A DNA stretch of 57,026 bases from Spirochaetia bacterium (GCA_965203905.1 CBDBDQ010000004.1:1-57026), one strand, 5' to 3'; positions 8,163-35,480 are shown, numbered from the stretch's first letter. Translations and numbers: made by a program. Notes: generated from the letters alone by a model not told the origin.

Positions 8163-8273
8163 CGCTCGATGTGGCCCGGCGGGGGGAATCGCCGGGATCA
8201 GGCCGATGAACAACCGCCGGTATATCGACGCGCCAGATCGCTTCAATGAGGCCCGGCGGCGTGTCGCCGGGAG
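8163..8273 (-). CRISPR. Orphan type I-G-like mini-array (2 repeats, 1 spacer)
   Basis: GCTTCAATGAGGCCCGGCGGCGTGTCGCCGGGAG at 8240-8273 and degenerate copy at 8163-8198; stem CCCGGCG/CGCCGGG; about 41-nt spacer. Confidence 0.7.
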
Positions 8274-8334
8274 GCTGGCATGGTCGTGTGATCGCACCGG
8301 GAGCTGCCGCGCACCGCGTTCATGGATCCGCCTC

Positions 8335-9678
8335 TCACTTGAAGTCCAGGCGGAACGGGGCGTACACCGTTCCGTCCGGTGTCACGATGGCGACCGTTGC
8401 CCGTATCCAGTACCCGGAGTATAGGATGTTGCCGCCTACCATGCTCAGCCGCCACGTGGTGCGGTAGAAGGCCGCCGCACCGGAGACGATACGTCCCACA
8501 GCGCCGTAGTAGGAGACCAATTGCGCTGCATCGGAGGCGAAGCTGATCGAGCCTCCGGTCCTCGTCGCCAGCTCGGACAACACTGCCAGATCGCCTCTCG
8601 ACAGGGCAACTACGTGAACCGCCACGTCGTGCCGGTCCGCCGCCTCGACGGCCTCGTCCAGACTACGGGTACTGCCGCCGTCGTTGCCGCCCGTGAGCAC
8701 CAGCACCATGCGATTTGTCGTCGTAGCGTGCCGGGCGGTGTAATCCGCCGCGATTTTCACCGCGTCGTAGAGCGGCCGGGTGCCGCCCTCCAGGTCAGCC
8801 AGCGCCTGAAGCGTCCCATCGAACCCATCCGCGTCCATCGTGAACCGGTTGCCCTCAGGGTCGCTGTAGCTGGTTGTGGGACTGAAGCGGAGTTTGCCCT
8901 CAGCGGCATACGCTACAAGCCCGGCCTCGGCACCGCTGGAAAGATTGTCCATGAACGCTTCTGCAGCAACCAAGCGAGCATCGCTGGGGTCGGTCCCTGC
9001 CATGCCGGCACTCTGATCCAGCAGCAGCGCGGCGGAATAGGGGCCGCTGGAACGTGACTCCGCTGTGGTTTCCGTATGCGTGAACTCGTGCCTGACACCC
9101 GGGAAGCCCCGCAACTCGAACGCGGCTATCGAAAAAGCATCTTCGCTCAAGGAGTAGAGTCGTGCGTCGGGAGCGACCGCAAACAGGTCGAGGGTGAACT
9201 CGGCGCTGTCCGCAGAGTAGCTGGTGACCTCGGCGCGCAGCGTGCCGGCAGACGCCTGTGCGGTAACGGCATCGCAGACATCGCCCTGGCCGTCGCCGTC
9301 GCTGTCGTCCTGGTCGGGATTGCTGGCGTACGGGCAGTTGTCGCTCTCGTCGGCAACGCCATCGCGGTCCCAGTCGTTCAAGGCATCGCAAGCATCGCCC
9401 CGGCCGTCGCGATCGCTGTCCCGTTGATCGGGATTCTCGACGGTCGGGCAGTTGTCACGCTCGTCTGCCACCCCGTCACCGTCTCGGTCGTTGAGCAAGT
9501 CGCAGGCGTCGCCTACCCCGTCGCCGTCGCTGTCGCGTTGGTCGGGATTCTTGACGACCAGGCAGTTGTCGGTCTTGTCGTCCACGCCATCATGGTCAAG
9601 GTCACTCGGCGGATCGCAGGCTCCGAGGCTCAGTGCAAGAGCGACAATCCACAAACAGGCGATTGGTCGTGTGATCAT
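8335..9678 (-). CDS. Lipoprotein with thrombospondin type-3 Ca-binding repeats and VWA domain
   Basis: Lipobox LGAC; DNC..NPDQxDSDGDGxGDAC repeats; [23 protein letters not shown] (MIDAS degenerate). Confidence 0.88.
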
Positions 9679-9756
9679 GCGAATCGAGGTGAGTTTACCA
9701 CAGCACACCGCCGCGGCGTGGAGCGGCAGCGCGGTTCTGGATGGGGTAGCGAGCGC

Positions 9757-11379
9757 CTATCGGTCGGCGAAGCGTATCCCGGAGTTGACCGGCGGCGCGG
9801 CGGCGGCCGGGTCGACTCGCCCCATGATCTCTTCAGCGAGAGGGTGAATGATGATCGGGCGGTATTCACGCCAACCACGCACCACCGCGGCGGGGGCGCG
9901 CAGGATGCGAATGCCGCCGAAGTCGCGCTCCAGCGAGTAGCCGGCAACCGTCAGCTCGGGGTCCGCGGCCACCAGATGAGTGACCGCGGCTGAGACGGTC
10001 TCCAAGTCGCGATTGATGGCGCGTCCCGTGGTGTCGTAGAACGGTATGGCACGGTGCAGGTAGTAGTAGCCTGGGGTGTTGAGATAGAGCCGGTCCAACT
10101 GCCACACCGCGGCGACACCGCTTGCGCGGGCCAGATGGCGGTACGCCGCGAAGATCGGATCCTGGTTGCGAAGGAACCGCACCATGCCGGTCTCCCACGA
10201 CCAAGCCTGGTAGACCCGCCCCTGATACGGCAGCTCGTTCAGCAGGCCGCCCGCCGAAACAGCCACGAACAGGATGGCCGTCGCTCCCCCAACCCAGCGC
10301 GAGCGGTCGGGTGCTGGCCGTCTGCTTGCCACCCACGCCGCAAATCGAACAAGGAGATCCCCGCCGATCAGGAGCCACAGCGGAATGACTGCGAAGATGA
10401 ACCGGTACTCCTTGTGCGACGACAGGGAGTGGCTCAGCAGTACCAGGGTGATCAGCGCCAGCACCAGGGCGTAGCGCCGTGCCCAACGTAGAGCCGACAA
10501 CAGACACAGCGCGCTCAGCCCCCCGCTGGCCAGCACAAGCCACCATAGGAACTGCCACGAGGGGCTCTCATTGGCTCGCACCGGCCCCAGAATCAGGTTG
10601 AAGCGCAGGTTGGTAACGTAGGAGTGGAACAGCCTGCCGTCCCAGGTGAGCGCGTCGAACATGCCCACGGCCAGGAGCAACCCCGTCGCGGCCAGGACCA
10701 GTAGCAGCTTTCGCTGGATGCGCAGGAACACAATCCCCAGCAGCAGCAGCGCCGGCAGCGCGTACTGCAGCCGGATCGCCACCGCCAGCACCGCGAGCAT
10801 GGCCGCCTGCCATACCACCCGCCGGCGGTCGACGGCGGGCCGTACGCATAGAGCCAGTAGTCCCAGCAGCGGCGCTGTGGCTACGAACTCGGTCATCGGT
10901 TTGTGCGCGAACCCGACCAGCTCGTACCAGAACACGCCGGCCAGCAGCGCCGCCCGCGCCGGGGCTTCGCCGAAGTGACGGCGGGCAAACCAGTACATAC
11001 CCGCAGGAATGGTCAGCGACAGAGCACAGAACAGCAGCTTGACACCACCGACGTACCACCACGGCTGGCCCAGCCCGATCACGTCGAACAGCTTGAGCAC
11101 GCCAGCCACCACACCCGGCACCAGCCACGCCCGCGCGCCGTAGAAGTACTCCCAGTAGATCACCCCGTTGCCGAACACCAAGCGATGGGCAGGCTCCAGG
11201 TACTGCATGATCTCATCCGGGTGCAGCACGAAGTCGCCGGCCAGGGCCACCGCGACGCGCAACGCGAGCAGCAACGGCAGCAGCGGCCAGGGCTGCTGCT
11301 GCTCCTGCAGATGCAACAGGCCGTCCAAGCGATCTTTCCTTCCGCTTTCGCCCATTCCGTTCACAGGCGAACCTAACAC
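9757..11379 (-). CDS. GT-C (Alg9/PIG-B, GT22-like) mannosyltransferase
   Basis: HPDEIMQYLEPAHRLVFG..WE..G.R.W, HKEYRFIF, many TM helices. Confidence 0.85.
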   Translation of the reverse strand: MLGSPVNGMGESGRKDRLDGLLHLQEQQQPWPLLPLLLALRVAVALAGDFVLHPDEIMQYLEPAHRLVFGNGVIYWEYFYGARAWLVPGVVAGVLKLFDVIGLGQPWWYVGGVKLLFCALSLTIPAGMYWFARRHFGEAPARAALLAGVFWYELVGFAHKPMTEFVATAPLLGLLALCVRPAVDRRRVVWQAAMLAVLAVAIRLQYALPALLLLGIVFLRIQRKLLLVLAATGLLLAVGMFDALTWDGRLFHSYVTNLRFNLILGPVRANESPSWQFLWWLVLASGGLSALCLLSALRWARRYALVLALITLVLLSHSLSSHKEYRFIFAVIPLWLLIGGDLLVRFAAWVASRRPAPDRSRWVGGATAILFVAVSAGGLLNELPYQGRVYQAWSWETGMVRFLRNQDPIFAAYRHLARASGVAAVWQLDRLYLNTPGYYYLHRAIPFYDTTGRAINRDLETVSAAVTHLVAADPELTVAGYSLERDFGGIRILRAPAAVVRGWREYRPIIIHPLAEEIMGRVDPAAAAPPVNSGIRFADR

Positions 11380-34165: not shown

Positions 34166-34488
34166 TCCCCCGCACCGCGGCGGGCCTCATCGAAGCATGA
34201 ACATGCAGCGCACCCAGCGCAGTCCAAACGCGCCTCTCCCGTCGCCCGCTGGCGACGAGCCTCATCGAAGCCGGATAAGGTCAGGAGGAACCGCGCGGAT
34301 GGTCCGTTGTTCCCGTCCGTGGACGGGCCTCATTACAGCATGAACATGCAGTGCGCTTGGGGCATTCTGTCCTACGCACCTTCCTCCGATCGCGGCGGGC
34401 CTCATCGAAGCCGCCAGTTTCAGGTGGCGTGCGCTTTCGTCCGTTCGGGCTGCTCCCGCCTGAAAAACCAGGCGGGCCTCATTGAAGT
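34164..34488 (+). CRISPR. Degenerate type I-G array (5 repeats, 4 spacers), opposite orientation to main array
   Basis: Repeats ending GCCTCAT(C/T)GAAG(C/T) at 34196, 34271, 34339 (variant), 34411, 34488 with varying GC stems. Confidence 0.8.
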
Positions 34489-34651
34489 AATCGCGGATCG
34501 ACGCTAACGTAAGGCTATCAAACGCTTTGTCGTATCCTTCACTTGGGTAGCACCGCGAGCGTGGGGAAGCACAATAGTGCGTGTACACACGGCAGGCAGC
34601 TCGTTCCCTGTTGTGTCATTCCACCTGTTCGGGAAATAGTCTCCAGCCAAG

Positions 34652-35357
34652 GTGAAGGTCATCACTCACGAAGACTACCTGGTCGCGGTCACGACCGCGG
34701 TGTGCGAACAGTTCCCGACCACAGCGGAGGCGCTGAGCGAGGTGCAGCTCGTGTTCGGGACCGGGCCGCGCCGGCGCGCGCTGGATCCGCTGCACCGCGT
34801 GTGGAATGGCGGCGAAGCGGACGCGCCGTTGCCGTTGGTGGAGATCGCCGCCATCGGCGGCCTGGCGCCGGCCGAGACCTGCCACGTGGTGCTTCACGAG
34901 CTCGCACACGTGCTGACGCCGGGCAGCGGCCACGGCAAGGTATGGCGGTTCGCGGCGCGCCAGGTCGGGCTGCTGAAGCCACGGGCGCGGCCCAGCCCCG
35001 ACGAGCTGGGCGGCGATCGTGCCGCCGCTGCGCAACAGGCTGCAGGCGATCCCGGCGCCGACCGAGCGCGTACCCGCCGAGTACTTCGACTGGCACCGCC
35101 GGCCGTGTGGCATGGGTTACGGCACCCGCGGCGGTACCAGCCGCGGCGAGGGTGCCGGCAGCCGTTACCTGAAAGTCATCTGCCAGCACCCGGGCTGCGG
35201 CTACCAGGTGCGGGTGACGCGCAAGTGGCTGCGGCTGGGCGCGCCTCTGTGTCCAGCCGGCCACGTGCCGCTGGCCTGCGATGATGGTGCCGAGGTGCCT
35301 CTTGCAAATGTGGCCCGGCGGAGTGCCGGGAGTAGGCCGATAGCGACCGGTCAGTAG
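34652..35357 (+). pseudogene. SprT-like Zn metalloprotease with C-terminal zinc ribbon, frameshifted near 35010
   Basis: VVLHELAH..GHGKVW in frame 1; YLKVICQHPGCGYQVRVTRKW..PLCP in frame 2. Confidence 0.7.
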
Positions 35358-35480
35358 TATCGACGCGCCAGATCGCTTCTATGTGGCCCGACGGCGAGTC
35401 GCCGGGAGCTGCTGAAACCCGGGCATGGAGGCTGTACCGTGATGGTGCTTCAATGAGGTCTACGGCGAGTTGGCAAGGAC
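35302..35480 (-). CRISPR. Orphan I-G-like mini-array (3 degenerate repeats, 2 spacers)
   Basis: Repeats at about 35302-35332, 35375-35408, 35447-35480; first spacer related to that at 8199-8239. Confidence 0.7.

Follow-up and report, generated by a model that had tools for sequence, protein, structure and literature searches.

CRISPR (short palindromic repeats that are clustered and regularly interspaced) mini-arrays that resemble the source of CRISPR RNAs (crRNAs), and that lie beside cas genes or on mobile elements, are established for subtypes I-B, I-C, I-E, I-F and V-A. Here we describe two mini-arrays with type I-G repeats, A (8163-8273) and B (35302-35480), on a contig of a Spirochaetia bacterium (GCA_965203905.1, CBDBDQ010000004.1:1-57026). 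The window, that is, the whole stretch of DNA analysed, is the entire contig C4 of 57,026 base pairs (bp), one of the five contigs of an 8.0 Mb genome; it looks like a plasmid and is taken for one below. The two mini-arrays contain homologous repeat–spacer–repeat units with unrelated flanks, and the guides encoded by these units begin with the same 17 nucleotides (nt).

In several respects A and B resemble the CreA/CreR elements as presented in the accessible part of bioRxiv 10.1101/2023.03.10.532045: a degenerate unit of two repeats and one spacer, a handle upstream and a hairpin downstream, and one copy arguably beside cas genes, B being 1.1 kb past the operon. The same text speaks of creA-like elements that a manual search turned up in subtype I-U (now I-G). 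Unlike for CreA/CreR, no partial match flanked by a protospacer-adjacent motif (PAM) was found in a cas or toxin promoter and no adjacent toxin candidate was identified, and the second copy of the unit is distant from cas.

There is also a likeness to the Cracr RNAs, for which the available text of bioRxiv 10.1101/2024.10.29.618823 describes crRNA-like units on mobile elements that share PAM-proximal nucleotides with a unit on the cas side, as well as degenerate arrays, to which array 2 of our plasmid would correspond. A Cracr is defined as lying on a mobile element, outside the CRISPR–Cas locus, and as having 9 or more PAM-proximal nt in common with a host CreA/CreR. A, which is not in the cas locus, shares 17 nt with B, but B is on the same plasmid. 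Unlike in the Cracr cases, both units here belong to one element with its own effector, and neither a host CreR/CreA with this seed nor a host promoter target was found. As far as that text goes, Cracr RNAs are reported for V-A, I-F, I-E, I-C and I-B and not for I-G.

The regulatory mini-arrays of Shmakov et al. (bioRxiv 10.1101/2023.03.03.530964), judged from the part of the paper that is accessible, likewise consist of two repeat-like sequences flanking a spacer, of which the seed is the most conserved portion. Their cases have a PAM-flanked match of at least 10 bp in the promoter of cas8, cas10d or cas6, which is lacking in our case, and neither I-G nor I-U is named in the accessible text.

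A different kind of comparison is offered by collapsed arrays and trailer remnants on plasmids without adaptation genes. A and B share with these a short array, a degenerate terminal repeat, old stems that drift and effector genes nearby; the cas1, cas2 and cas4 families had no match among the open reading frames (ORFs) searched in the window. Unlike such remnants, one unit is found twice, in unrelated contexts 27 kb apart and with the hairpins intact in both. A and B would at best be an I-G example of the known crRNA-like mini-arrays, and the PAM-flanked promoter target that this would require was found neither at the I-G cas loci nor on the remainder of the plasmid.

Two copies of one unit in unrelated contexts

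Mini-array A, on the minus strand, is a single repeat–spacer–repeat unit. Its upstream repeat (8240-8273; CTCCCGGCGACACGCCGCCGGGCCTCATTGAAGC), which an nhmmer repeat profile matches at E=8e-5, has a 7-bp hairpin (CCCGGCG/CGCCGGG), the linker CCTC and a perfect handle, ATTGAAGC. The 40-nt spacer A (8200-8239) has GATCTGGCGCGTCGATA at its 5' end and ATCGGCCT at its 3' end, and the downstream, terminal repeat (8163-8199) keeps a 7-bp hairpin next to a degenerate handle (CCAC ATCGAGCG). Mini-array B, on the same strand, is one repeat and one spacer longer. Its first repeat (35447-35480) has no hairpin (2 bp, p=0.69), the linker CCTC and the perfect handle, and is followed by the 38-nt spacer B2 (35409-35446), which has no counterpart at A. 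The middle repeat (35375-35408), identical to the upstream repeat of A at 30/34 positions, has a 7-bp hairpin with one G-U pair, the linker CCAC and the handle ATAGAAGC; the 41-nt spacer B1 (35334-35374) is the paralogue of spacer A, with 17 identical nt at its 5' end; and the terminal repeat (35302-35333) keeps a 6-bp hairpin with a degenerate handle.

The original prediction, made from this DNA alone, had placed both mini-arrays at these positions and had described their stem as unlike that of the plasmid's main array. Both statements are borne out, the main-array stem being CCGTCC/GGGCGG and variants of it. So is the statement that both minus-strand guides start alike after the handle, since GATCTGGCGCGTCGATA is found twice there, the strand itself being deduced from repeat polarity. 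The two units had also been called distant orphans: they are indeed 27 kb apart, and A sits 19 kb from the start of the cas operon, but B is not distant from cas, lying only 1.1 kb past the end of the operon (34165).

The 17-mer occurs in exactly two copies in the window, each immediately 3' of a handle; at up to 3 mismatches, 0.16 matches are expected by chance, and 0/100 shuffles reached 3. The likeness is not confined to it. Blastn of the two neighbourhoods gave a single significant match (81% over 107 columns, E=8e-22), restricted to 8169-8273 against 35308-35408, and in a global alignment the repeat–spacer–repeat units are identical at 90/114 columns (79%). With gaps allowed, spacers A and B1 align from end to end, 35/42 columns being identical, and their 7 differences are three 1-nt indels and four substitutions. 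Outside the units there is no likeness: the upstream flanks (77 nt) score -8, against -8.3 +/- 7.4 for shuffles, and the downstream flanks (73 nt) -5, against -0.4 +/- 6.9. The flanks are thus at the level of shuffles, and similarity that continues through them, as in the neutral segmental duplication that the original prediction had considered, is not what is seen.

Because the units are homologous and their flanks are not, A and B represent one ancestral unit that is now present in two unrelated contexts; the identical 17-nt start of their guides is thus inherited and not convergent. Terminal repeats that combine a degenerate handle with an intact hairpin are in the state of a trailer end, which suggests that their common ancestor had itself formed the final unit of an array.

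The spacers had first been described as sharing both ends around a diverging middle. The shared ends stand, whereas the diverging middle holds in an ungapped comparison only, and the impression arises largely because a 1-nt insertion just after nt 17 shifts the ungapped register – a caution that comparing paralogous spacers without gaps can create a spurious 'same seed, different body'. The 8 nt common to the 3' ends of spacers A and B1, ATCGGCCT, were not retained as a signal, as their probability is about 0.2 (a hand calculation for 7 differences in 42 columns) and not significant. A vestigial third repeat with a second spacer upstream of A was also rejected, its alignment being no better than shuffles. 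The finding is real, yet more ordinary than first proposed: two diverged copies of one I-G stump.

Processing signals and the guide 5' end

Csb2 cleaves 4 nt 3' of the repeat hairpin and so gives an 8-nt handle (PMC9638904, in its accessible part). Hairpins directly before CC[T/A]C exceed those of shuffled sequences both in A (7 bp in the upstream repeat, p=0.007; 7 bp in the downstream repeat, p=0.003) and in B (7 bp in the middle repeat, p=0.0135; 6 bp in the downstream repeat, p=0.0115), and the sole stem substitution between the two copies yields a G-U pair. Read from the sequence, both copies retain the putative determinants for Csb2 and Cascade: hairpin, 4-nt linker and 8-nt handle.

Transcription would be from the minus strand, to judge from the polarity of the repeats: the handle ATTGAAGC, the Csb2 rule and a weak minus-strand match between Rfam CRISPR-DR16 and the upstream repeat of A (23.4 bits, E=0.0042; gathering score, 35). 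Rfam gave no match at the gathering score anywhere in the window, and nothing at B. The mini-arrays would probably be co-transcribed with the genes upstream of each, so that A, if transcribed, would be made between a VWA gene and a DUF6166 gene, while the transcript of an ORF of 96 amino acids (aa) would run on at its 3' end into B. Folds of the whole transcripts, with z-scores of -0.4 to -1.3, are uninformative; so, because contigs do not reveal RNA ends, is the lack of any contig over 35255-35796 in one metatranscriptome (X16).

We see about an even chance that A and B are stumps of a collapsed array that still serve as active guides against an outside element, a stump being the remainder after an array unable to take up spacers has shrunk. 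The plasmid's other arrays likewise carry old, degenerate repeats. A processed crRNA would consist of the 8-nt handle, a guide of 40 or 41 nt and the hairpin; the predicted guide RNAs would be 70-80-nt species that start with AUUGAAGC or AUAGAAGC. They could be loaded either by the Cas7g-Csb2-Cas8g2 complex of the plasmid or by the canonical I-G complex of the host, because both use the same handle. As the guides differ after nt 17 (three indels, four substitutions), one target could be fully paired by at most one of them, and the second guide would be limited to a seed-only R-loop on the target of the other. The target is not in the bacterium's own genome, which is why we assume it to lie on an outside element, for example a competing plasmid or a phage, rather than at a self-regulatory site. 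Transcription, processing, loading and selection on the seed of A and B are what we infer from these features.

Selection is where the 5' end of the guide comes in. A prefix test, which gives the probability of an identical prefix at least as long as the one observed, given the differences in the spacer alignment, returned 0.018 for A/B1. For two further paralogous pairs, from the degenerate array 2 (34163-34488, plus strand; five repeats and four spacers), it returned 0.0039 (S1/S3) and 0.32 (S2/S4), and the Fisher combination of the three pairs is 0.0015. In array 2 a two-unit block was long ago duplicated in tandem (R1-S1-R2-S2 against R3-S3-R4-S4): 104/162 columns of the block alignment are identical, its score is 82 against -11 +/- 9.9 for shuffles, and its longest run has p=0.05. 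Spacers 1 and 3 have their first 12 nt in common, ATGAACATGCAG, despite different stems in their upstream repeats, and spacers 2 and 4 have a common prefix of only 2 nt. Among the 6216 pairs that can be formed from the genome's 112 spacers, a prefix of more than 6 nt without full duplication is found only in A/B1 and S1/S3. These figures, obtained post hoc, are modest evidence that the guide's PAM-proximal end is preserved and hint at purifying selection there; such seed-biased conservation would be expected of any working type I guide, be it immune or regulatory.

There are also points against active guides with an outside target. Over the 114 columns of the A/B1 units the 24 differences reach a maximum of 7 in 16 columns (p=0.49 by permutation), and the longest identical run, 22 nt (5 nt of the handle plus the 17), is marginal (p=0.073); differences so little clustered are therefore compatible with even neutral decay. 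The prefix test was chosen after the pattern had been seen, and an equal prefix pattern could result from gene conversion initiated within the conserved handle. No sigma-70-like promoter was found, with 0 sites upstream of A and none on the minus strand near B. No target turned up in the own genome, in 91 genomes of the order, in phage, plasmid and viral collections or among the metagenome matches listed, and an outside target is the default, since no protospacer was found in any collection searched. The proposal also leaves without explanation the route by which a bare repeat–spacer–repeat unit reached two unrelated contexts. Finally, B appears in some relatives and not in others. No near-identical plasmid record exists, but the plasmid or close kin is present in sponge and coral metagenomes (contigs of public runs, compared over 25500-36200 of the window). 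B is retained in one coral contig, which differs at 1 position over 35202-35525, and one sponge contig that spans 35216-35662 shows 4 differences besides 21 gap letters; in a sponge contig of a ~9%-diverged lineage, however, 35265 is joined to 35503 through 61 other letters that replace 35266-35502. Because this lineage is without B, B is dispensable and its presence or absence a polymorphism. Conservation in related plasmids, put forward in the original prediction as a check, holds for B in the coral contig and fails for it in the diverged sponge lineage.

Several of these points would suit dead relics, that is, what is left, untranscribed or unloaded, of an array once duplicated or rearranged; the identical 17 nt would then come from few differences that happen to cluster, or from gene conversion out of the conserved handle next to them. 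The permutation tests just given, together with the longest run in array 2, keep even divergence in play; promoter-like sites and a target are missing from the collections and stretches searched; B is swapped for 61 letters in the diverged variant; and many repeats on the plasmid are decaying. Set against this, the units are 79% identical while their flanks are at random level, 4/4 of the hairpins required for A and B1 are intact, and the combined prefix test stands at p=0.0015. Deletion bias, moreover, is expected to purge useless DNA from plasmids and should have cleared such leftovers from one of 57 kb. We hold relics to be somewhat doubtful, though well worth entertaining. The original prediction's view of A and B as guide-encoding units agrees with the intact hairpin, linker and handle and with the combined prefix test, but its step from 'same seed, different body' to selection is weakened by the full-length homology and by a spread of differences that fits even divergence.

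Target searches and regulatory alternatives

When the genome's 112 spacers were compared with the genome itself (blastn-short), the mini-array spacers had no match outside the arrays. The 17-mer, at up to 3 mismatches, was found at 35 places in the own genome, against 19 for a reversed control, and outside the two arrays none exceeded 15/17. A seed scan of the genome, with every 6th position left free, gave 94 matches, the longest of 15 positions; reversed guides gave 11-41 matches and extended up to 13-15 positions, a range like that of the true guides.

In the larger collections the exact 17-mer was present in 1 stretch of viral_contigs and 90 of genome_contigs, with the handle in 0/91 and a best alignment of 28/42, and in at least 116 stretches of metagenome_contigs, with the handle in 0/116 and a best alignment of 30/42 among the matches listed. 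Handle plus seed, searched at up to 3 mismatches in the 92 genomes of the order, matched in 5/91 of the others, each time with 3 mismatches, and a repeat upstream of such a match was seen at 0/6 of the loci examined in these genomes. Neither the chromosome nor any of the other 91 genomes of the order yielded a unit with the shared seed, and mini-array A, compared with 40 relatives, gave only repeat-level matches to their arrays.

Searches with the remaining spacers ended similarly. The array-2 seed occurs in at least 115 stretches of viral_contigs, the best alignment among the matches listed being 27/40, and for the S1/S3 seed no target was found on the plasmids and only 5 weak seed matches in the chromosome. 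Spacer B2 and the newest main-array spacer were found in 0 stretches each of viral_contigs. The main-array spacers, compared with plasmid and phage collections for PAM inference, had no match; against the 92 genomes of the order they gave only repeat-level matches and one 31-nt match of 91% in G005, lying across a low-complexity spacer and 8 nt of the repeat. A match between a chromosomal spacer and the plasmid (15861-15885; 25/39 nt), which does not cover the seed, was set aside as chance.

A regulator of the CreA/CreR or Cracr type would act differently, through seed-only binding of Cascade at a PAM-flanked site and repression without cleavage by Cas3, and the genes repressed could be cas genes, a toxin or host defence genes. 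The form of the units is consistent with it: the handle persists in the upstream repeat, whereas the downstream one has lost it and retains its hairpin, the pattern given for CreR in the available part of bioRxiv 10.1101/2023.03.10.532045, and B adjoins the cas operon with A elsewhere on the element. Spacers of regulatory mini-arrays are reported, in the accessible text of bioRxiv 10.1101/2023.03.03.530964, to be conserved chiefly in the seed, and crRNA-like RNAs carried by mobile elements, with a seed copied from CreR/CreA and at times stacked in arrays, are described in that of bioRxiv 10.1101/2024.10.29.618823. The sites point the other way. A scan of the cas loci and the plasmid, which required positions 1-5 and 7-8 and left every 6th position free, gave no promoter or intergenic match of at least 10 nt at the three I-G loci and no intergenic matches on the whole plasmid.

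Three matches do fall within cas loci, all of them in coding sequence: one in cas8g2 (window 33728), and two in the variant cas3g and the 715-aa gene of a chromosomal I-G locus (G000 C5:2150411 and C5:2155761, minus strand). Their flanks are GCC (cas8g2), GCT and CAT (chromosomal variant), with no TTN and no common motif. They make up 3/94 of the genome's seed matches, inside the two adaptation-less I-G loci, where 0.32 would be expected (binomial p=0.004, uncorrected and post hoc), a figure that favours a regulator; chance matches are inflated, however, because these loci are richer in G+C (0.69-0.72) than the genome, and we keep the three as a lead only. The first of them is the 11-nt match inside cas8g2 (33728-33738, plus strand; 5' flank GCC) that had originally been noted as lacking a TTN PAM and as possibly due to chance. 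It does lack one; the 11-mer has 36 chromosomal copies, from which 0.26 exact copies are expected on the plasmid. Further against a regulator, the genome's seed matches end by 15 positions, as do those of the reversed controls (13-15), and a related plasmid variant is without B. We therefore consider a regulator unlikely, and the CreA/CreR-type interpretation raised in the original prediction is unsupported: it lacks the mark by which such regulators are defined, as neither the promoters of the three I-G cas loci nor the rest of the plasmid hold a PAM-flanked partial match. For the anti-competitor guide, the prediction's other suggestion, no outside target was found in the collections searched.

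The coding matches could, at a stretch, make the seed a cross-regulatory address that tunes or couples adaptation-less (Cas8g2-type) systems, the RNAs of A and B directing seed-only binding of Cascade to intragenic sites with a non-TTN PAM. The sites would be those in the coding strands of cas8g2, the variant cas3g and the 715-aa gene, and the array-2 pair might be included. We think this very unlikely; if true, it would be the first I-G crRNA-like regulation, and one acting inside genes instead of promoters.

In a last alternative the spacer is irrelevant, and the hairpins of A and B would be Racr-like decoys that sequester Csb2 or Cas7g of the host's canonical I-G system. The units are plasmid-borne, and the repeats of the host's canonical chromosomal array, 88 in number, end in CCTC followed by ATTGAAGC, as do the upstream repeat of A and the first repeat of B. 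To our knowledge, however, RNA anti-CRISPRs of the Racr kind are solitary repeats, whereas A and B are full repeat–spacer–repeat units. A decoy would also hit the plasmid's own I-G effector, and conservation of the spacer 5' end would not be expected of a spacer that does not matter, all of which makes decoys highly improbable.

The plasmid, its type I-G systems and its relatives

The adaptation-less I-G operon of the plasmid (27168-34165, plus strand) consists of cas7g/csb1 (27168-28385; TIGR02570, 4.7e-23), csb2 (about 28238-29830, with an uncertain start; TIGR02165, 7.5e-81), cas3g (29834-32677; TIGR02621, 2.4e-236), cas8g2, of the Cas3-extension family (32868-33902; NF049934, 1.7e-45; PADLOC Cas8g, 3.6e-76), and, as its last member, an 88-aa ORF (33899-34165), all on the same strand. 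I-G repeats form four groups on the plasmid. The main array (25626-26992, minus strand; 19 repeats) is uniform at its leader, on the 27 kb side, and more degenerate towards the trailer at 25.6 kb; array 2 starts at the stop codon of the last operon ORF and is co-directional with it; and mini-arrays A and B are the other two. An nhmmer profile built from 24 repeats has 29 matches on C4, all inside these four arrays, and no solitary repeats were found with the repeat profile on contigs C1-C4, C4 being the only small contig with any repeats. The plasmid's 24 distinct repeats have stems of very different sequence, most of which nevertheless pair. A micro-inversion was considered for the central part of spacers 1 and 3 of array 2 (10/13 by eye, in a GCGC-rich segment) and dropped. 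Between array 2 and an SprT-like gene, in a 163-nt gap that is less rich in G+C, there is a terminator-like hairpin followed by a T-run (34577-34590, minus strand).

The chromosome carries a canonical I-G system (cas3g, cas8g1/csx17, csb1, csb2, cas4g/cas1g) with the 88-repeat array (G000 C5:4478372-4485316). This array contains 10 pairs of full-length identical spacers, which stem from internal segmental duplications, and ~480 bp are inserted ahead of its last repeat. A second adaptation-less I-G variant is also chromosomal (L224:5301-13551) and encodes the 715-aa protein, which is of unknown kind, Cas7g, Csb2, Cas3g and a Cas3-extension protein. About 100 nt beyond it lies a mini-array of two repeats and one spacer (L224:5093-5203; G000 C5:2148092-2148202), with a repeat of its own, GTCGCCGGGACCACGGTCCCGGCCTTCGTTGCGCGG, and a hairpin after it; the spacer has no other match in the genome. 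This genome thus has the adaptation-less I-G variant twice, and in both cases a tiny array follows the Cas3-extension gene.

Around A, the gene for a protein with thrombospondin type 3 repeats and a VWA domain (8335-9708, minus strand) ends 61 nt upstream, on the same strand as A. Downstream lies the DUF6166 gene (7608-8156, minus strand; Pfam PF19663, 5e-20), whose first in-frame start is a GTG at 8156, 7 nt past the last repeat of A; it is a single-copy gene in the genome, and a literature search for DUF6166 yielded no paper. Immediately upstream of B, and co-directional with it, is the acidic, helical 96-aa ORF (35481-35771, minus strand), whose stop codon directly precedes B. Its codon-position GC (0.68/0.43/0.80) marks it as coding, it has no Pfam or PHROG match, and its structure model is helical, of low confidence (pLDDT 61) and too poor for a fold search. 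Divergent from it is a small ribbon-helix-helix (Arc/ORF56-like) gene (35869-36081, plus strand; phrog_3431, E=5.5e-4; NF041793, E=0.0011, below the cut-off). The two together (35481-36081) resemble in arrangement the pairs of an anti-defence gene and its regulator, a likeness of layout alone.

Elsewhere the plasmid encodes a DnaB/AAA_25 helicase, an Mrr nuclease, glycosyltransferases and numerous repeat proteins (thrombospondin/VWA, Ig-like, collagen-like, pentapeptide). The last group includes a 2145-aa ORF with 348-nt internal repeats (14511-20948), collagen-like 9/18-nt repeats (21093-22514), four-fold Ig-like repeats (24282-25553) and pentapeptide repeats (51838-52479). The 40-52 kb part also contains two families of direct repeats of 33-37 nt, with the core ATTATCGGCAGTGGGCTGGCCGC or CGGAAGTGGCAGGTCACTCGGCGGTGGCC, at 40433, 42258, 43269, 44102 and 49212 for one family and at 45350, 45990, 47542 and 51781 for the other; they may be shared regulatory or gene-start elements.

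Beyond this genome, a Cas8g2 homologue is present in 1/400 other genomes of the phylum and in no viral contig searched. The only plasmid match is to pRMAR01 of Rhodothermus marinus, at 33% identity, and the architecture there differs, because cas1 and cas2 adjoin its Cas8g2 gene.

If A and B are relics, they would show in clear form what becomes of arrays that have no Cas1-Cas2: shrinkage, duplication and drift. If they are active, the plasmid keeps two copies of one address, an I-G example of crRNA-like RNAs on an element in which adaptation genes were not found, and the shared start of their guides would be a concrete seed to seek in the sponge and coral communities that harbour the plasmid.

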